A stretch of 64,000 nucleotides of DNA from an uncultured Chloroflexia bacterium (GTDB taxonomy: Bacteria > Chloroflexota > Anaerolineae > B4-G1 > SLSP01), in contig CAVVUS010000012.1 of the NCBI GenBank assembly GCA_963751345.1, positions 1 through 64,000 on the forward strand, read 5' to 3'. The position numbers and the translations under genes were made by a program. The notes under the pieces are model-generated. The model saw only the letters and a program-made list of their open reading frames with translations, had not been told where the DNA came from and did not search any database. This document shows positions 7,527 to 19,560 of the stretch, piece by piece (within the stretch, counting starts at the first letter, position 1; each line of letters opens with the position of its first letter).

Positions 7527-7539
7527 GAACACTGACTAC

Positions 7540-7570
7540 AGAGCGCCTTCGAAATCGAGGGCGCTCTTTG
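7540..7570. terminator. Hairpin between the convergent YHS and moeB genes
   Basis: AGAGCGCCTTCGA-aa-TCGAGGGCGCTCT followed by TTG. Confidence 0.65.
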
Positions 7571-7624
7571 GTATCCGGGTAATTTCCGCAAGCAGGTCCA
7601 TTATCACCGCCCGGGATGTTCGTC

Positions 7625-8675
7625 CTAGCCTCCAACGTAGCGAGCATAGAGTGCCCGGGCCACGGCAAGATCGTCTGTCCCCTTGATGATCGCGCGCCCA
7701 TCCCTGAAGAGCGTCAGTTCGTATCCGCCGGTACGGAACCGCAGCAGATAAGCATTGTGGTCCAGTTCGCCCAGCGGGGCCAGGCGAGCTGCCAGCGCAG
7801 GGAAGTCGGGCGGTTGCCTGTCCTTGGAGTTGCCTCCGGGCCTTGCCGAAGGGCTTCACCTGTACGGCGTCGCGACCACAAAGCGCAGCACTTGCCGTCC
7901 CTTGACGCCCCTCCAGGAAGTCGTAACGGTGCTCGTCACACGCCGGACAGGGCTCCTCGCCCTTGGTCAGGCCGATGCGCTCAACGATCCCTCGCCACAC
8001 GTCGACGTAGCGCAGATCGCGGCACAGGGCGTCGCTCTGACCGGTGAGCAGCTTGAGCGCCTCGGTCACCTGGAGCGCTGCGATGACCTGTGGAACCGTT
8101 CCCAGCACCCCCACCATATCACAGGTGTCGGTCGTGCCGGGGGCGGGCAGATCACCGACCATGCAGCGGAAGCACGGCCCATCTCCCGGCACAAACGGCG
8201 CCGTCATCCCATACATGCCGATCGCCGCGCCGTAGATCCAGGGCCGCCGGTGCTTGAGACAGGCATCGTTCACCAACATCCGAACCTCAAAGTTGTCGCC
8301 GCCATCGAGCACGAGGTCGCAGTCGGCGACCAATGCCTCGACGTTGTGAAAGTCGACGTCTGCCACAACTGGCTCCACCGTCACCTGGCGGTTCACGCGC
8401 TGCAGCTTCCTCGCTGCCGCCACGGCTTTCGGAAGGTTAGCGGCGATGTCATCCTCGTCGAAGAGCGCCTGTCGCTGCAGGTTGTGCTCCTCGATGTAGT
8501 CGCGATCCACCAGGCGCACATATCCCACCCCTGCCCTTACGACGCCCGAGGCCAGCGCCGTGCCGAGCGCCCCCACACCGATCACGACGACGCGCGAGCG
8601 CAGCAGCCGCTCCTGCCCCTCGACGCCGATCTCAGACAGCAAGATCTGGCGAGAGTAGCGAGTCAGGTCGGGCAT
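7625..8675 (-). CDS. moeB: ThiF/MoeB-family adenylyltransferase (frame break near 7800; true end YARYVGG*)
   Basis: RYSRQ, GVGALG, DRDYIEEHNLQRQ, PCFRC, TCD catalytic Cys, CPAC; C-terminal LTLFRDGRAIIKGT in the shifted frame. Confidence 0.88.
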
Positions 8676-8727
8676 CTGAAAGTCGTCTCCCTTCGCGTTT
8701 CCCCTGCCGGCGAAGCAGCAGAAGCTC

Positions 8728-9583
8728 TCAAGCCTGAGAGGTCCCCTCAGCGACGAGCGTCTCGCCTGCCAAAACCTCGTTCATACTGCCGCTGCGGAAT
8801 CCCTCGAGATCGACGGTGACATAGGCATAGCCGAGCTCTTTGAGGCTGGCGACGAGGCGCCCGCGGTTCGGCTCCTGGAGCAGCCTCGGGAGATCCGGCA
8901 GTTCTACCTCGAGGCGAGCTACGGTATCGTGGTGGCGAACGCGCACTTGGCGCAGCCCGAACTCCGCCCGCAGCAGATCCTCTGCCGCCTCCACGCGACC
9001 CAGCGCCTCGGCTGTGATTCGGGCACGGTAGGGGAACCGAGAGGCGAGACAGGCCATAGCAGGTTTGTCCCACGTCGGAAGCCCCCTTTCCCTGGAGAGC
9101 GCACGTACGTCATCCTTGGTCAGCCCCGCCTCAAGCAGCGGGGCACGCGCACCCCATTCCTTCGCAGCCCGCATGCCCGGCCGGTGATCTCCCAAATCGT
9201 CCAGGGTTGCGCCGTAGACCACGTGCTGGAACCCAGCTTCCCGAGCCATCTTCGTCAGATCGGCGAAGAGATGGCCCTTGCAGAAGTAGCAGCGCTCCGG
9301 GGGATTGTCTCGCGAAGTTCGGGTCGCCCAATTCATCCGTGGTGATCTGCCGCTGGCGGGCGCCCAAGGTCCGGGCCAGCTCCGCCGCTGCCTCTCGCTC
9401 GCTGGCGGGATAGGTCGGCGAATTGGCCGTGACAGCAAGAACACGCTCCGTGCCGAGGGCGTCGATCGACGCCGCCAGCAGATACGAGCTGTCCACTCCC
9501 CCGGAGAAAGCCACGACCACGCTGCCGAGCTCGCGCAGTTGGTCGTTCAGCCGCGTACGCTTGTCAATCAAGGTATCCATCAT
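8728..9583 (-). CDS. larE: ATP-dependent sacrificial sulfur transferase LarE family (frame break near 9320)
   Basis: PP-loop AFSGGVDS, RCYFCK, RPGMRAA, WDKPAMACLASRFPY, VDLEGFRSGSMN. Confidence 0.9.
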
Positions 9584-10514
9584 CAGTCCACATCGAAGAG
9601 CGGCGTGCTCAGGTACCGTTCACCGGTATCGGGCAGGATCACCAGCGATCAGCTTGCCGGTGTTTTCCGACCGTCGAGCGACCTGGACCGCCGCGTACAC
9701 CGCTGCGCCCGAGCTGATCCCGGCCAGGATCCCCTCTTCCCTCGTCAGCCGACGTCCCATCGCTATCGCCTCGTCTCCGGTAACGTGGAAGACTTCGTCG
9801 ATGATATCCGTGTTCAGTACCGCCGGCACAAACCCGGCGCCGATGCCCTGGATCTTGTGACCGCCCGGCGCCCCACCGGCCAGGACCGGGGACTCGGTCG
9901 GCTCAATAGCGATAGCCTGGAGCCCTGGCTTCTTCGCCTTCAGAGTCTCGGCGACACCGGTGATGGTGCCACCGGTGCCCACACCTGCGACCAGGATATC
10001 CACCTGGCCGTCCGTATCGCGCCAGATTTCCAGCGCCGTGGTCTCGCGATGGATCTGTGGGTTGGCCGGATTCTCAAACTGCTGCAGAACGAAGGCATCG
10101 GGCCTCTCAGTCGGCCAACTCAGCAGCCTTGTCGATCGCGCCCTTCATCCCTCCCGCCCCCGGCGTCAACACCAGTTCGGCGCCCAGCGCCTTCAGCAGC
10201 TTGCGCCGCTCTATGCTCATCGTGTCCGGCATTGTCAGGACCAACTTGTACCCACGCGCAGCGCAGACGAACGCCAGGGCGATGCCGGTATTCCCGCTGG
10301 TCGGTTCGATGATGAGCGTGCCCCGACCGATGCGCCCCTCGCGTTCTGCTGCGTCGATCATGCTCACGCCGATCCGGTCCTTGACACTGCTCAATGGATT
10401 GAAGAACTCCAGTTTGGCTACGACTTCGGCGACCGCGCCACCGGTCACCCGGTTCAATCGAACCAGAGGTGTATTTCCCACTAACTTCGTCATATCGGTT
10501 GCGATTCTCATCAT
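9583..10514 (-). CDS. cysK: Cysteine synthase A (several frame breaks)
   Basis: [12 protein letters not shown]-lysine motif [42 protein letters not shown]. Confidence 0.93.
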
Positions 10515-10549
10515 CCGTCCTCCCATTGGGCAAACTTTCGCTACACACA

Positions 10550-11224
10550 TCAGTTACCGGGGCGCGCTGGTTGCGGCCCAACTGTTCCGGCAGGAGATTC
10601 GCCAAGCCGGACCTGAAAGACGGCCAGGCCGGCCCGTAGATTGGCCCTCCACGCGCCGATCTGCCGCGCGGGGGGGGCGAGGAAGATCTCCCGCACACGC
10701 TCCAGTCCGAGCTTCTGACAGAGCAGTCTGAAGTCCCGTACGGAGCACAGGTGAACGTTAGGCGTATCGTACCACTCGTAGGGCAAAAGTGGGGTCTTGG
10801 GCATACGTCCGTTGACGAGTAACTGCAGTCGCACACGCCAGTACGCGAAGTTGGGAAAGCTGATGATCGCCGCCTTCCCCACGCGCAGCATCTCCTGGAT
10901 CACGCGCACGGGATCGGACGTCTGTTGAAGCGTCTGGCTCAGGATCACGACGTCAAAAGCGTGTGCATCGTAATTACCCATACCCTCCAGCATGTCACCG
11001 TGGTACACCGCTACGCCGAGGCGGATACAGGCCAACACGGCCTCGTCGTCGATCTCGATCCCGCGCCCCACACAGTTCTTGTCCTCTGCCAGCTTGGCCA
11101 GCAGTTGGCCATTGCCACATCCCAAGTCCAACACGCGCGCCTCGTCGGGAACCAGGGATGCGATCAAATCGTGATCCGGGCGGCGCTGGTAGGGCTGCGC
11201 CCCTATTTTCGACGATCCGCTCAC
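10550..11224 (-). CDS. metW: Methionine biosynthesis protein MetW
   Basis: [48 protein letters not shown]; GTG start overlaps the metX stop. Confidence 0.92.
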
Positions 11225-12409
11225 AACTCGCCCTCCCGCACCTTGCGGTGCACGTTGGCCAGGAAGCTCCGTACCGTCGTCCACAACTGGTCATTGGGCA
11301 GCAGAAACGCGTCGTGGCCGTAGGGATTCTGTATCTCCAGGAACGTGGTCGGCACGCCGTTCGCCTGCAACGCCTTGACCATCTCTTTCGACGCCAGGGT
11401 AGGGAAGAGCCAGTCACTGCTGAAGGAAACGACGAGGAACTCGGATCGCACATCCTTGAACGCCTCAACCAGAGACCGATGACCGTTGGCCAGATCGAAG
11501 TAATCGATGGCTTTGGTGATATACAGGTAGGAATTCGCATCGAACCGCCGGACGAAAGCGTCGCCCTGGTACTTGAGATAGCTCTCGACCTGGAACTCGG
11601 TCTCGAAGTCGTAGCCGAAGGACTCCCGCGTCTGCAGGCGGCGCCCGAACTTGGAACGCATCTGCTCATCAGAGAGATAGGTGATGTGGCCAACCATCCG
11701 GGCGATGGCAAGCCCGGCCGAGGGCTGCGCCTGATCGTAGTAATCACCGTGCCGCCATTCGGGATCGGCCATAATCGCTTGCCGTCCGACCTCGTCGAAG
11801 GCAATTCCTTGGGCGTTGAGACGGGCAGACGTGGCGATGGCCAGCACCGATGCCGTGGCATCGGGATACCGTACCGCCCAGTCGAGCGCCAGCATGCCGC
11901 CCATGCCGCCCCCAGCGACGGCGAGCAGCCGCCGGATGCCGAGATGCTCCACGAGCCGCTTCTGTGCGCGGACCATGTCGGCGATGGTGACCACGGGAAA
12001 GCTCAGGCCGTAGGGCTCGCCGGTCCCCGGATCGATGCTTGCCGGCCCGGTACTGCCCTTGCAGCCGCCAATGACATTGGCGCAGACGATGAAGTAGCGG
12101 TCGGTGTCGTAAGGCTTGCCCGGCCCCACCATCGCGTCCCACCACCCCGGCTTGCGGTCGTCCGCTGTATGATAGCCGGCAAGGTGGGCATCCCCGGAGA
12201 GCGCGTGAAAGATCAGGATCGCGTTATCGCGCGGGCGCATTCAACGTGCCGTACGTCTCATAGGCCTGGGTGACCGGGCTCAGCGCTCGGCCGCAATCCA
12301 GCGGCAGCGGATCGTCAAAGGTCCACGTCTGGGTCTCGACGAGGCCCACACTACCGGAGCCGCCCAGCTTCGAGTCGTCCCTGATCTCGATAACGTTATC
12401 GATAGACAC
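11221..12409 (-). CDS. metX: Homoserine O-acyltransferase MetX (frame break near 12240; nucleophile motif reads GGGMGG)
   Basis: AYETYGTLN, HALSGDAH, GWWD..VGPGK, NVIGGCKGSTGP, RRFDANSY, SDWLFP, GHDAFL. Confidence 0.92.
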
Positions 12410-12419
12410 GGCTAGCCTC

Positions 12420-13754
<1,335 letters not shown>

Positions 13755-13766
13755 TCAGCATCCGGG

Positions 13767-14856
13767 TCAGTGGGATGCTGCCGGACCCCCACCGAGATCC
13801 ATCACAAAAGTGTAAATGTAGGAGACCAGTCCATCGATCTGTTCGTCCGTGAAGATCTGGCCATATGAGGGCATGCCGGTGCCCATCCCCCCGCGTAACA
13901 TCTTGCCCTCAAGCCTCGCCGGGCTGGTCCCCAACATACGACGCGGATCCGTAAAATCGGGCGGCTGCATCGCTGTCTGCCCCCCCTCCAGCGTTTCAGC
14001 ATCATACGGCGGCAGGCCCTGCACCATCACTCCATCGCCCTGCCCTGTCTCGCCGTGGGCTGCAGCGGCTTCTTGACGGTAGATGCGCCCTGCTTCATCC
14101 AGTGAAGCCGGTGTCGTCTGCCGCGCCCAGATCCACGCCACCGCGTCCCAAACATCCATATCGCTCAGGGTGTGCAGCGCCGGCTCGCCGCGAAGCTGCG
14201 TCCAGAGCTCCGCCGGACTGTGGCTCCAGTAAGTGGCATCCTCTAGCGCGTAGCCGGGCAATAAGGATGCCCACTGCCCACCGCGTTGCGCCACCGGCGT
14301 TGTCTCGGGCACCACCGCGGCCTCCACCGGCGCATCCGGATCGATTCCCAGTTGGACGTATCGAGGCGTCCCTGTCGTCTGGGAGACTCCCTCGCCCGTC
14401 GGAGTGAACGAGGAGCTCCCCGTGACCTCGATCGTGCCCCGCATCCGCCAGTGATTGGGTCCGCACCAGCGGGTGCAGTAGAAAGTATACGTGCCGGGCT
14501 CATCGAAGACCAGGGACGTCGTGGTCCACTTCCCCGGCAAGACATCGACTGCCGGGCTGTCGTGACGCCCTACGGCAAACCCGTGCGTCACATCGTCTGA
14601 GGTCAACCGGAGCTGCAGCGGCACCCCTACCTGCGCCTCCAGGACATCGGGCGTCCATCCTCCCTCATCGGCCATCCGCCCGTGGAGTTCCACGGCGGCC
14701 CCCGCACGCCCGAGCCAACGACCGCCAATCGGGATGGCGACGGCAGCCGAGTACCAGAACAGTCACCACAACGCGTGCCAGACGTTCCAGCTTTGGAGTC
14801 GAGGCCGGCAGGCCAGGATGCCTCCGATCAACGCCGGCGTTCAAATCAGCAGCCAT
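13767..14856 (-). CDS. Membrane-anchored CuA cupredoxin fused to cytochrome-c-fold domain(s) lacking CXXCH (frame break near 14745)
   Basis: VTHGF...YCTRWCGPNHWRM CuA motif; C-terminal GRIYRQEAAAAHGETGQGDG..PPDFTD..GGMGTGMPSYG..QIDGLVSYI class I cyt c pattern. Confidence 0.8.
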
Positions 14857-16212
14857 AGCATGCCAGCCGTGACGAGCGAGCCATAGGCCAGTACCGGCAA
14901 GGATTGGCGGGGAGAGACGGCACGCCGCACCTCCACCGCCGCCCAGAACAAGCCAACTACGAGAATAGCTACCTGAAGCAGGGGTACCACGGACATCAAG
15001 ATACGGCTGCCACGCCCACCCGGCGGTGCCCAGGAGATTCCAGCCTAGACCCAGGGGGTCGGAGAGGACGGGCCATACGTAGGCCAGACTGTCAAAGGCG
15101 AAGCTCATCGTGAAGGCGATCCAGGCCGCCAGCCCCAGCGGGCTCATGGCGTGAGCCAGGTCGATAGCGCTCCGCCTCGGCGAGCCGGGCCGCCCTGCCA
15201 TACGCCATCCCGTCCGTGCGGCCAACCAGAATAGCCCCGGGCCGATTCCCAGCGTCAGGGCAAGGAACGCGAGGGCGTAGAGCCCCCAGATCGACGTGCC
15301 GATCGCGTAAGCCGCCTCGGTCAGGTGGCCCCAGGGTCCGAGCATCACGGCGGCATAGACAGGGGCACACGCTAATATGAAGAGTCCGAACCAGGCGCGA
15401 TCCAGGCGCCGCGCAGGTCTCGTTGCCCACGACGTGATCCCGGCGGGATCCGCAGCGCCCGCGGCTACCTCGGACCCCATCGGGCGCACCCAGAGCGCCA
15501 TATTGTCATAGGGGCAAGTCTGTACGCAGGCCAAGCACAACCCACAGTCAAAGCTCTCCTTGAGAACCGCCGGGAAAAGACCCCACGAGCAGGCACTGTG
15601 ACAGGGCTTATCGCTGCACCCGGTGCAGACACCGGGGTTGCGGACCCGAACGGCCAGCGGGGCAAGCTGCTGGTACCATCCAACGTATCCACCAATGGGG
15701 CATAGATAGCGGCAGAAGGCACGCCGCTCGAAGACGAGAGCGAGGCCGGTGGCCGCCAGGAGCAGGCCGAGCAAGATCCACCCCGTGGCGCCGGGGCGAG
15801 TGAGCAGCACCACGCTGAAGAGCCCCATCGCCGCGAACCCGCCCAGTTGCAGCCATTGACCTCGTAACCGGCGGGGCCATCTCGCTTTGAGGCCTACGCC
15901 CTTGCCGGGGCGCGTGATGCCGCCCTGCTGCAGCCACTCCCCCACGACTGGGATGGGGCATATGCTGCACCACGTCCGTCCTCCAATGGGGATGAGGACC
16001 AGCTTCAGCACCGTCCACCAGGCAATCCATACGAAGATGATGGCAAAGTTGCGCCCGCCGACCGGCGTCCCCAGCAGCCCTGCGAGAATCGTGAAGACAA
16101 GGCCGGCCAACGTGATCGCTTGGCCCAGGAAACGTGGCCACCGGCGCCTCAACAATGGGCCCAGCCGGCGGACCCGGGTGAGATCGAAGCCGCGCTCCGG
16201 AAGCGACGTCAT
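14841..16212 (-). CDS. Polytopic 4Fe-4S binding protein (NapH/NosR/FixG-like polyferredoxin; frame break near 15000)
   Basis: GRTWCSICP and RAFCRYLCP motifs; CTGC..CHSAC; CGLCLACVQTCP; many TM helices. Confidence 0.88.
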
Positions 16213-16679
16213 GCTTGCATTACCCTACCCGAGCGCTCAGAAGACACGCCAAAGACGGACGCCCATACTACCGCCGCCAATGCCAGCCCTGTTGCCCGCA
16301 CCCACAGCCGGTTTGGACCCACCCGCAGCCTTCCGATCATGAAGGGGTGAATGTCGCCACAGGGCACGGAGCAACGAAATCGGAAAGATCCGGGACGGTC
16401 GGCCACGAAGGAAAGCGTCGCCACCTGCCCGGGATTCGCGGTCACAGAGATGTCGTACCCGTCGAGATAGAGCCCATGGACGACGTCGGTCGATCTCACC
16501 TCCAGCGTTACCCTGTCGCCCGGATTCACGGTGACGGTGCCCGGCGTGAAGCTGAACCGGGATGCCGAAATCGACACGACCCGGTCTTCGGGGTCAATCT
16601 GCTTGCCTGGTATGGGCACGCAGATGATCACGAAAACGGCCGCCAACAACACGAGCCATTGCCGGGGAACCTTAGGCAT
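16209..16679 (-). CDS. Stand-alone CuA-type cupredoxin (COX2-like domain) with two TM anchors
   Basis: DVVHGL...FRCSVPCGDIHPFMIG matches H..C-x3-C-x3-H-x2-M. Confidence 0.88.
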   Translation of the reverse strand: MPKVPRQWLVLLAAVFVIICVPIPGKQIDPEDRVVSISASRFSFTPGTVTVNPGDRVTLEVRSTDVVHGLYLDGYDISVTANPGQVATLSFVADRPGSFRFRCSVPCGDIHPFMIGRLRVGPNRLWVRATGLALAAVVWASVFGVSSERSGRVMQA

Positions 16680-16687
16680 AGACCACG

Positions 16688-17134
16688 TCAGGGTGTCGGT
16701 GGGCCGAAACGACTGTACTGCTGATCTACGTAAGCCCGGATCTCTGTGACCGACTTACCCTGCCCGGACATACGCATCGTATCGTGCGTGATGTCCACGC
16801 AGAGAGTGCAGCCCAGCGCATGGCTGTCGAAATGAACGGTGCCGTCTGCATCCGTGCCCTGCACATAGCAGCTATAGTTGGACGTGTGGCCCATAGCCCC
16901 ACAACCACAGTAGCAGGGGACCTGCTGCATCACGTCGGGATTGGCAACCGCGAACTGGTAAGCCTCGCGCACCACCACAGAAGCCTGCTGCACTTGCTGC
17001 GGCATGTCGGCAATCGGTGCGAGTTGAAGGGCGGCATTCGCGCCCGCCGCGCCACTCGCGCCACAGCTTGCCACGACTGCAGCCACCACAAGCATGCCCA
17101 CGACCATCCCCACCATCTTCAGGTGTTGCGTCAA
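16688..17134 (-). CDS. PCYCGC motif-containing lipoprotein
   Basis: Lipobox VASC; VPCYCGCGAMGHTSNYSCY; HALGCTLCVD; GAGGAGG SD before the TTG start. Confidence 0.92.
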   Translation of the reverse strand: MTQHLKMVGMVVGMLVVAAVVASCGASGAAGANAALQLAPIADMPQQVQQASVVVREAYQFAVANPDVMQQVPCYCGCGAMGHTSNYSCYVQGTDADGTVHFDSHALGCTLCVDITHDTMRMSGQGKSVTEIRAYVDQQYSRFGPPTP

Positions 17135-17383
17135 CGTTGGCCTCCTCGAGAGCTATCAAAGGTTGCGTGTCCCGCTTCTGCCCAGGGCAGCATCAGAGGA
17201 CGAGGTCACGCTTCGAACAAGTCTAGCAGAAGCCGTCGTGGCATTTGAGGGCCAAATGACGAGAGCGGGATCCCGCCAAATGGCGGTGCCTGCAGCCGGC
17301 CAAAAGCGCCTGTTGATGGGATTGTGTGTTGGTTATCCTGATCACAATAGTCCGATCTATCGCGTCCGTGGTCGCGCTTACTC

Positions 17384-17451: not shown

Positions 17452-19560
17452 ATGAGTAACGATTCGCAAAGTACGGCCCATCACGCCGCGCACGATCGAG
17501 ACAAGCATGCCATGCACCAGGCGGTCATGACGCACACAGACCACGACGGTCACGAGAACCATAGGGACGGTAGCAATCACGGGGGCCACGTCGACCACAC
17601 CGGCCACGAGCAGATGTTCCGGCGCCGGTTCTGGATCAACCTGATCCTGACCCTCCCTGTGCTGGTCTTCAGCCCGTTTATCCAGCAGATATTGGGTTTT
17701 AGCATCCCGCCATTCCCCGGCAGCCGCTGGATCGGTCCGGTCTTCTCCTTCATCGTCTTCTTCTACGGCGGGTTGCCCTTCATCAAGATGGCCATCCCCG
17801 AGGTGCAGCACCGGCTGCCTGGGATGATGACGTTGATCTCGCTGGCTATCGTTGTGTCATTCGCTTACAGCGTCTTCGCCGTCTTCACTGATCCCGCAAG
17901 CGGCTTCTTCTGGGAGATGGCTACGCTGATCGACATCATGCTGCTGGGTCACTGGATTGAGATGCGCAGTGTCAGGCAAGCCTCGGGCGCGCTTCAGGAG
18001 TTGGCCAACCTGATGCCGGATACCGCTGAGCGCATCCTGGACAACGGCGAGACCGAGGAAGTGCCGGTGAGCTGCTCTGAAGGAAGGGGACCTCGTCCTC
18101 GTGCGTCCGGGCGCAAGCGTTCCGGCTGATGGGGAGGTCACTGAAGGGAAATCCGGCGTCAACCAGGCCATGATTACGGGCGAGTCCAAGCCGGTAACCA
18201 AAGAGCCCGGCGATAAGGTGATCGGCGGGGTCATCAACGGCGAGGGCAGCCTGCGCCTGCGGGTGACCGCGACAGGCGAAGACACCGCGTTGGCAGGCAT
18301 TATGCGGCTCGTCGACGAGGCGCAGAAAAGCAAGTCCGATACCCAGATCCTGGCGGACCGGGCGGCCGGGTGGCTCTTCTATGTGGCGCTGGGCGTGGCT
18401 GCACTCACGGCTATCGGATGGATCATCGTCCAGGGACTGCAACTTAGCGTGCTGGATCGCGTGGTCACGGTACTGGTCATCGCCTGTCCGCACGCGTTGG
18501 GTCTGGCGGTGCCGCTCGTCGTCGCCATCAGCACCTCACTGGGTGCGCGCAACGGCATCCTGGTACGCGATCGTTTGGCGCTCGAAGAAGCCCGCGAACT
18601 TGACACCGTGATCTTTGACAAGACCGGCACGTTGACGGAAGGCAAGTTCGGTGTGGTCGACATGGCCGTGTCCGGCGACTGGGATGAAGCGCGGGCGCTG
18701 GGACTCGCCGCAGCGGTCGAAGGGGACTCGGAGCACCTGCTGGCACAGGCCATCCGGGGGAAGGCCAGTGAACGCGGGTTGAGCCTGCCGGAGGTCCGCG
18801 ACTTCGAGGCCATCAAGGGTCGCGGTATTCGGGCCCAGGCTGAGGGCAGGACGATCTACGTCGGTGGCCCACAGCTGCTGGAGATGCTGAAGACAGAGCC
18901 GCCAGAGGTGTTGCGGACCTTCGCGACCGAGGCCGGTGTCAAGGCCCAGTCGTCGTCTATCTTGTGGATGAAACGGACGTCGTGGCCGCGTTTGCGCTGG
19001 CCGATGTCATTCGTCCGGAAAGCCGCGAGGCTGTCAGACGGCTGAGGGAATACGGTGTTGAGGTCGCGATGCTGACGGGTGACAGCGAGGAAGTGGCCCG
19101 GGCCGTAGCGAAGGAGCTTGGCATCGAGACCTATTTCGCCGAAGTGTTGCCCGAGAACAAGGACCAGAAAGTTGCACAGTTACAGGCACAGGGGAAACGG
19201 GTGGCGATGGTCGGTGACGGCATCAACGACGCCCCCGCGCTGACGCGCGCGGACGTCGGGATCGCCATCGGCAGCGGGACGGATGTCGCCATTGAATCGG
19301 CGGGCATCATCCTCGTCGAGAGCAATCCGATGGATATCGTGCGGATCTTCGAGCTGAGCAAGGCGACTTACAGAAAGATGATCCAGAATCTCATCTGGGC
19401 GACCGGGTACAACGTGATTGCGCTGCCGCTGGCAGCGGGGGTATTGGCGCCGGTTGGCATCTTGCTCTCGCCGGCAGTTGGCGCACTCCTGATGGCGCTC
19501 AGCACGGTGATTGTTGCGATCAACGCACAGTTGCTCCGGCGCGTGGATCTTTCACGGTAG
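17452..19560 (+). CDS. copB: Copper-translocating P1B-3 type ATPase (frame breaks near 18075 and 18950)
   Basis: His-rich N-terminus, [12 protein letters not shown] (CPH), [24 protein letters not shown]. Confidence 0.93.

Follow-up and report, generated by a model that had tools for sequence, protein, structure and literature searches.

A module of four co-oriented genes, designated here g1 to g4, lies between positions 13,767 and 17,134 of a 64,000-nucleotide stretch (assembly GCA_963751345.1, contig CAVVUS010000012.1) of an uncultured Chloroflexia bacterium; this whole stretch is referred to below as the window. The genes encode a PCYCGC lipoprotein, a CuA cupredoxin, a NapH-like polyferredoxin, and a CuA–cytochrome fusion (Table 1), and profile hits and coordinates matched the module as it had been given in a preliminary description of this DNA. 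No match to a CoxA query was obtained in the window at an E-value of 1e-4, and a heme-copper subunit I was not found. A six-frame scan detected the CuA-type motifs of g2 and g4 and no third one, and matches to NosZ models were confined to the CuA part of the proteins, in agreement with the earlier statement that the window encodes neither a heme-copper subunit I nor a N2O reductase. The window is indel-rich, with many single-base indels splitting genes, neighbours of the module included (e.g., 17,452–19,560). Comparison with a 94%-identical relative (L001) located single-base insertions in g3 and g4. The 515-residue open reading frame (ORF) of g3 is an artefact of this insertion; the intact relative has 456 residues. 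In g4, the insertion masked an N-terminal membrane anchor. The single-base indels of the window look like sequencing errors rather than decay.

Table 1. Features of the module and of its upstream flank, with positions in the window.
Feature	Position	Strand	Description
g1	16688..17134	-	PCYCGC (PF13798) lipoprotein
g2	16209..16679	-	CuA cupredoxin between two membrane helices; ligands H68, C103, C107, H111, M114
g3	14841..16212	-	NapH-like polyferredoxin; true stop at 14841; +1 insertion at 14999
g4	13767..14790	-	Anchor, CuA (H62, C98, C102, H106, M109), heme-less helical domain, cytochrome-c domain; start approximate; +1 insertion at 14746
Candidate operator palindrome	17273..17286	.	CCGCCA-n2-TGGCGG, 5' of g1, between g1 and copB
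CopB-type copper P1B ATPase	17452..19560	+	Divergent; CPH type with a His-rich N-terminus; indels divide it into three ORFs; belongs to the context, not to the core subunits

A single scan of GTDB genomes with g4 gave 511 matches, of which the best 80 loci were analysed; these loci are related, and the counts obtained from them are not independent. All records naming a taxon belonged to Chloroflexota, mostly Anaerolineae. The arrangement is far beyond chance because the four genes keep the same order and strand in 60 of the 80 related loci; 18 of the other 20 loci were cut by contig ends, and two (L004 and L054) lacked the expected upstream gene. A gene for oxidase subunit I was nearby in one locus, together with its own CoxB, and a cbb3-type gene was likewise nearby in one. 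No NosZ-type CuA motif was found in the 80 loci, and no Nap genes were found among the recurrent neighbours. A link to cox, nos, nor, or nap clusters was rejected on these grounds. Neighbourhood conservation analysis, which had been suggested earlier as a check, thus places the module outside cox, nos, and nor clusters.

Both cupredoxins carry the CuA ligand set His ... Cys-x3-Cys-x3-His-x2-Met. The two motifs stood as first quoted and aligned ligand for ligand with the CuA domain of Thermus ba3 oxidase. The ligands of g4 were conserved in 80/80 loci, and those of g2 in nearly all sequences (H68 64/64, Cys/Cys/His 66/66, Met 65/66). Profile searches matched g2 to COX2 and Cupredoxin_1 and g4 to COX2 and Cytochrom_C. 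In the structural model of g4 (predicted local distance difference test, pLDDT, 85.5), the CuA domain superimposed on 2cua_A of ba3 oxidase with a root-mean-square deviation (rmsd) of 1.4 Å over 93 columns, and the best fold match of the protein was caa3 subunit II (2yev_B). The COX2-type cupredoxin fold is taken from the model for g4 and from sequence alone for g2. Sequence and fold together support the prediction of true CuA sites in both proteins. Both were below the cut-offs of the known families: TIGR02866 (CoxB) scored 42.9 and 47.6 bits vs. a cut-off of 147.7, and NosZ models scored at most 50 bits vs. cut-offs of 625–700. Two of 120 g4 records are labelled "cytochrome c oxidase subunit II/2", a label that can inflate claims of aerobic respiration for Anaerolineae.

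The preliminary description had presented g4 as CuA fused to a cytochrome c fold, with its anchor still hidden. The fold was retained (Cytochrom_C match), but the heme-attachment motif was not: the window copy has AAAAH in place of CxxCH and, lacking that motif, cannot attach heme covalently. Among g4 homologues, CxxCH was present in 171 of 200 rows and missing in 29; some of these rows duplicate one another, as loci and as proteins. A rapid tree built from 86 rows (the 29 without the motif and every third of the others) requires three changes, two of them forced by well-supported branches. The loss is common to whole clades, while His238 and Met299 stay invariant, the window copy included. 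Non-covalent binding of heme b by the AxxAH domain is plausible, and there is precedent for a c-type fold that binds heme b non-covalently.

The membrane protein g3 matched Fer4_5 (PF12801), scored 27.8 bits with TIGR02163 (NapH) vs. a cut-off of 213, and had no significant solved relative by sequence search. Nine helices are predicted, with the N-terminus inside and a membrane helix at the end. The cytoplasmic side bears CxxCP and CxxxCP motifs and two [4Fe-4S] motifs, in which one ligand is His in 39/73 sequences, and the outer face has an invariant G-P-W-G loop. Many Trp residues of the membrane part are invariant, and no conserved membrane His was observed. By positive-inside topology, the Fe-S domain is placed on the cytoplasmic side and the two CuA domains on the outer side. 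Neither g3 nor any of the 42 recurrent neighbour families scanned contained FMN_bind or ApbE; the 309 less frequent neighbour ORFs were covered by motif and tblastn screens.

A g3 profile search of 1.84 billion representatives gave 591 matches at 1e-30, and the best 150 were examined. N-terminal extensions of at least 100 residues were present in 64 of the best 150, with a strict CuA motif in 25 of these 64; L019 and P0148 likewise have g2 fused to g3. Among 49 long relatives scanned, others bear NosL, YHS (four), YtkA, HMBD, cytochrome c, or c554 domains. In five of the best 150 (P0380, P0385, P0397, P0402, and P0405), a GltD/PRK12771-like NAD(P)H-FAD-FeS domain is inserted in the cytoplasmic ferredoxin loop, and two of the five also bear CuA on the same chain. 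The potentials are approximately +250 mV for CuA, −75 mV for menaquinone, and −320 mV for NAD(P). Transfer from NAD(P)H to CuA is therefore strongly downhill, which argues for outward electron flow, at least in those relatives. A quinol-to-surface wire had been proposed for the module at the outset; the outward wire is kept, but quinol is not necessarily the source, as the fusions found in relatives suggest NAD(P)H or ferredoxin in the cytoplasm. P0385 and P0375 have a TlpA-like N-terminal domain ahead of CuA. One g3 homologue (P0221) is named from a Zixibacteria genome, and the g3 family may extend beyond Chloroflexota. A plasmid search with g3 gave 11 distant matches (23–27% identity), and the module was not present in the three neighbourhoods inspected.

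Multimer structure prediction, another check suggested at the start, was performed with g3, g2, and g4. With g2 as the partner, the three-chain prediction reached an interface score (ipSAE) of 0.73 vs. 0.01 for the best of three controls. At least 93% of contacts agreed between runs, and partner pLDDT was at least 77. The ipSAE mark, which the complex passes, was reached by 116/157 solved and 2/215 mismatched pairs and is a rough guide for a three-chain job with its own alignments. Memorised structures are a less likely cause of the pass, as g3 has no solved relative by sequence. The central subunit of the model is g2: its CuA loop (104–117) rests on g3 residues 289–296, the region of the G-P-W-G outer loop, its second helix packs against the last helices of g3, and its opposite face contacts the CuA region and heme site of g4. 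The prediction supports mutual binding of g3, g2, and g4 and with it the physical membrane wire envisaged earlier; a g3–g2–g4 complex with outward electron flow is probable.

It is highly improbable that the module is a leftover of a cox or nos cluster or that its genes came together by chance and have no joint function. The window copy is frameshifted and has no heme motif, but its frameshifts are single insertions compared to the intact 94%-identical relative, indels also occur in neighbouring genes, and the motif has been lost by whole clades that keep the His and Met. Conservation of gene order, ligands, fusions, and the complex model largely refutes this explanation.

The same complex could work in the opposite direction, as a cuprous (or ferrous) oxidase that needs no O2, comparable to CopI or FtrB/FtrD, in which surface Cu(I) would pass electrons through g4, g2, and g3 to the quinone pool. 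In the model, g2 residues 42–44 are turned towards g4 and the His111 loop towards the membrane subunit; F42 aligns with a Phe of Thermus ba3 oxidase that we take to be the electron entry site. However, such flow would be uphill by the potentials given above, most so in the NAD(P)H fusions. Copper exporters adjoin the module; under anoxia, copper is toxic as Cu(I), which CopI oxidises according to the part of PMC13308877 available to us. EfeU/FTR1 was found in only one of the 80 loci, approximately 7.8 kb away. We regard an inward oxidase as distinctly unlikely.

Recurrent neighbours in the 80 loci were DUF1573 (58), DUF2085 (32), a NarL-type two-component pair (32–33), a two-domain multicopper oxidase (11), YtkA (9), CcdA (8), Lgt (8), CupA-like (7), TlpA-like (5), and CopI-like (4) proteins. 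Copper P1B ATPases of both CPC and CPH types, on either side of the module, occurred in 29/80 loci and in 17 of the 31 long loci (at least 19 kb). At least one of P1B ATPase, multicopper oxidase, YtkA, CupA, and CopI was present in 20/31 long loci; these copper-gene counts come without a genome background. The divergent copB named earlier is indeed a copper P1B ATPase. The original suggestion of Cu/Fe redox conversion gains a copper link from the neighbouring copper genes and is disfavoured for iron; iron uptake was rejected on the single occurrence of EfeU/FTR1.

The main rival is a respiratory donor branch, in which g4 would feed a terminal enzyme encoded elsewhere (A-family oxidase, NirS/NirK, or NosZ) or the two-domain multicopper oxidase for O2 scavenging, and the copper genes would only supply CuA. 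The likeness of g4 to caa3 subunit II fits such a role, as do the multicopper oxidase, YtkA, CcdA, and TlpA-like genes in the proportions given above. T. daxensis, a carrier of the module (L017), has genes for an A-family oxidase with alternative complex III, bd oxidase, NirS, and NrfA (PMC4653793), and NapH-like proteins modularly serve many reductases, as described in the consulted part of PMC8238504. On the other hand, subunit I and cbb3-type genes are each near the module in a single locus, no NosZ-type motif was found in the loci, and some g3 relatives bear copper-chaperone-type domains in place of CuA. Direct NAD(P)H feed would also bypass coupling sites. A donor branch thus appears possible but unlikely.

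The lipoprotein g1 matched PF13798 (PCYCGC) with 99 bits (cut-off 25) and remained under the cut-off of 90 with NF041379 (CYCXC; 75.3). It has a lipobox Cys24, six more invariant Cys, and two invariant His. The model is a small helical fold (pLDDT 90) that weakly resembles the CcmH N-domain (2kw0, E 0.41; Foldseek E 2.3; 2hl7, Z 4.2, rmsd 3.9 Å, 74 aligned residues), all below significance. Nothing above Z 5.1 or under E 0.001 was found in fold searches, so that neither a new fold is shown nor CcmH excluded. No function is assigned to the PCYCGC family in the accessible part of PMC13068155, and the family includes selenocysteine (UxxC) members according to an excerpt of PMC13188914.

In most related loci, the module is accompanied by a fifth gene, g5, which encodes a DUF1573 protein with an Ig-like fold; no g5 homologue or associated hairpin was found in the window. 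Selenocysteine-type examples lie within L006–L079 (e.g., L041:10952-11440, +). All 53 DUF1573 ORFs ending in Gly-Cys stop at TGA, vs. 541 of 1184 background stops. Read-through continues for 55–62 conserved residues in 50 of the 53 and contains an invariant M-H-x-x-M-x-G-x-H motif (50/50), and Cys occupies the TGA position in three loci. A hairpin resembling a selenocysteine insertion sequence lies 12–15 bases past TGA, where third codon positions are fixed (mean entropy 0.29 vs. 1.4–1.6 outside). In this hairpin, 93.6% of cells are paired, with 19 double changes (35 of 53 sequences); none of 500 shuffles scored as high, slid controls reached at most 65.7%, and the hairpin is absent from the three Cys forms. 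A true stop or global recoding was rejected, since ordinary stops in these loci are most often TGA and the site lines up with Cys. Thus, g5 is a probable new selenoprotein subfamily (G-C-U-P-P) with copper-binding-like features, as judged from sequence. Among database homologues, 76 of 120 entries are truncated at Gly-Cys and 44 are not, and U or X appears in none; annotation of this selenoprotein is affected accordingly.

With the DUF1573 selenoprotein OS_HP2, g5 shares the Ig-like DUF1573 fold and a UGA that is in frame where Cys would stand; it differs in the G-C-U-P-P motif (vs. UGC/NF041425), the Met/His motif, and its place in a CuA operon. Four g5-type proteins gave no match to NF041425, which CGC-type paralogues match at 66–71 bits, and no NCBIfam model matched g5. 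The DUF1573 selenoproteins in the table of a 2026 review are listed with the UGC motif only (PMC13188914, as far as its text was available). The second DUF1573 type (C-G-C, weak OS_HP2 match) is found near the module in L005, L012, L014, L030, L043, L058, L064, L068, and L080, in several of which the selenocysteine type was not found. A DsrE-like UxxC protein, a known selenocysteine family, has TGA in 6/6 loci, five of them also with g5-TGA. This gene, with TGA and a hairpin, occurs in L029, L031, L037, L045, L048, and L070 (e.g., L070:6254-6496, −), in several loci beside ArsR, ferredoxin, and a sulfide-oxidoreductase-like flavoprotein.

The Cys-rich g1 and the Cys-selenocysteine pair of g5 could also be read as catalytic redox centres of an envelope thiol or oxidant-repair system of MsrPQ or DsbD type. 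The selenocysteine members of PF13798, the faint CcmH-N likeness of g1, and the recurrence of DsrE, sulfide-oxidoreductase-like, DoxX, CcdA, and TlpA genes in a few loci are consistent with this. However, CuA is too oxidising for disulfide reduction, the resemblance to CcmH does not reach significance (E 0.41; Z 4.2), and the Met/His motif of g5 is more typical of Cu(I) binding, which makes thiol repair quite improbable.

The best explanation overall, held tentatively, is an outward cupric reductase of CcoG/Fre type, made of CuA parts and serving copper handling. In the proposed mechanism, g3, g2, and g4 would form one complex moving electrons outward over the single membrane of Chloroflexota. 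A cytoplasmic low-potential donor, i.e., NAD(P)H via a GltD-like flavoprotein or ferredoxin (quinol being possible), would reduce the [4Fe-4S] clusters of g3, as the fusions suggest. Electrons would then cross the membrane without a conserved heme-b His, through a region of many invariant Trp and possibly via bound quinone. They would be received by the CuA of g2 on the G-P-W-G loop, at the predicted place where cytochrome oxidase has subunit I, and pass on through the predicted contact to g4, with its heme site and the second CuA. The likeliest acceptor would be surface Cu(II) on accessory proteins, candidates being g5 (Met/His, Cys-selenocysteine; in most relatives) and the Cys/His-rich PCYCGC lipoprotein; both may also help to load the four CuA coppers. 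The case for copper is built on the copper-gene neighbours, the chaperone-type fusions, the Met/His selenoprotein, and the precedent of CcoG, an Fe-S membrane protein shown to be a cupric reductase (PMC7558416, consulted in part). Copper as the terminal acceptor falls somewhat short of an even call.

Several observations weigh against a cupric reductase of this kind. The modelled g2 has the orientation known from cytochrome oxidase, in which electron flow is inward, and nothing found accounts for a membrane crossing of approximately 30 Å. The NAD(P)H fusions are found in distant relatives whose taxonomy is unchecked, and the neighbour families present in at least three Chloroflexota loci include no GltD-like gene. 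The window copy has neither CxxCH nor g5. Copper genes are equally expected if they merely supply the CuA sites; 11 of the 31 long loci, T. daxensis included, have none of the five copper gene types; and copper-regulator boxes were nearly absent from 57 regions upstream of g1 (CsoR 0, CopY 0, CueR-like 1). Finally, the 80 loci are the best of 511, all from Chloroflexota, and not independent.

By its motifs, profile scores, and gene context, the module fails membership of CoxB, NosZ, NapH proper, CcoG, and FtrABCD and would work like the modular NapH-like systems. NapH/NosR/PceC-like systems (PF12801; available portions of PMC8238504 and PMC5928378) share with g3 a four-helix core, two Cys-Pro motifs, and two cytoplasmic [4Fe-4S] motifs and, like the module, have an extracytoplasmic redox domain, fused or separate; their outer carrier is a covalent flavin mononucleotide (FMN) domain or NapG, whereas here it is CuA. 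In addition, g3 has five extra helices predicted to bind the CuA subunit, the first of its two motifs reads CxxCP, and the module comes without a gene for a terminal reductase. NapH proper has two CX3CP motifs and NapG/NapA partners. With subunit II of caa3/ba3 oxidases and the NosZ CuA domain, the module shares the ligand set and cupredoxin fold, and g4 shares with caa3 CoxB the CuA–cytochrome c fusion. Unlike these enzymes, it has no subunit I or propeller, misses all hidden Markov model cut-offs, and has two CuA proteins in series, with CuA predicted to dock on a polyferredoxin. The cupric reductase CcoG/FixG is likewise a membrane Fe-S protein with paired Cys motifs and copper-trafficking neighbourhoods, described in the consulted part of PMC7558416 as supplying Cu(I) to CopZ and P1B ATPases. 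In contrast to CcoG, g3 lacks the C-terminal Ig-like domain, there is no cbb3 operon or ccoGHIS/ccoNOQP linkage, and a CuA/heme relay leads to the outer face. The FtrABCD iron uptake system differs in its FTR1 permease, absent in 79/80 loci, and in having FtrB in place of the dinuclear CuA motif. Its FtrD is presumably a membrane polyferredoxin paired with a cupredoxin, which is not stated in the consulted text of PMC11966278.

Of 57 regions upstream of g1, 23 contained the core of the palindrome, compared to 182 of 2645 background windows (6.9%), the motif having been picked after inspection of the same regions. It is perhaps an operator for the NarL-type regulator common in related loci. The DUF2085 membrane protein (e.g., L029:15860-16630), with a conserved C-H-Q-L-P motif, is usually encoded just upstream of the NarL-type pair. 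Scans of the window for tRNA genes and for sigma-70 promoters and terminators gave nothing, an Rfam search on six loci gave no match, and atlas look-ups returned nothing beyond the proteins' own families. Directly 3' of g4, a sulfur amino-acid cluster occupies 7,536–13,727 (−), with a metY-like gene by Pfam and metX-, metW-, cysK-, larE-, and moeB-like genes by eye. The same cluster adjoins the module in L001–L004 and is possibly co-transcribed with it in this clade.

The module is real, conserved, and apparently undescribed. Neither the operon nor the G-C-U-P-P family was found described in the open literature searched, a scope that excludes subscription papers, supplements, and the contents of BSepDB (PMC13326102), and the available part of PMC6769254 does not mention the module. 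The repeated natural loss of CxxCH with His and Met kept offers a testable c-to-b heme conversion, and the fusions that unite NAD(P)H and CuA sites in a single chain are directly suited to tests. To our knowledge, work on CuA has dealt almost exclusively with its role as an entry site in oxidases and N2O reductase. A widespread complex with CuA docked on a NapH-like protein would provide a tractable route to how NapH/NosR/PceC/CcoG proteins transfer electrons through membranes because purple CuA is a built-in optical reporter. More speculatively, CuA may have a third structural home here, carried by a membrane Fe-S protein instead of a heme-copper catalytic subunit or NosZ; the module would be an NAD(P)H- or ferredoxin-driven, heme-b-free trans-membrane cupric reductase (the bacterial equivalent of Fre1 of yeast) with a Cys-selenocysteine selenoprotein, not listed before, as copper acceptor or chaperone. 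If true, selenium would be linked directly to both CuA and the trafficking of copper in nominal anaerobes.

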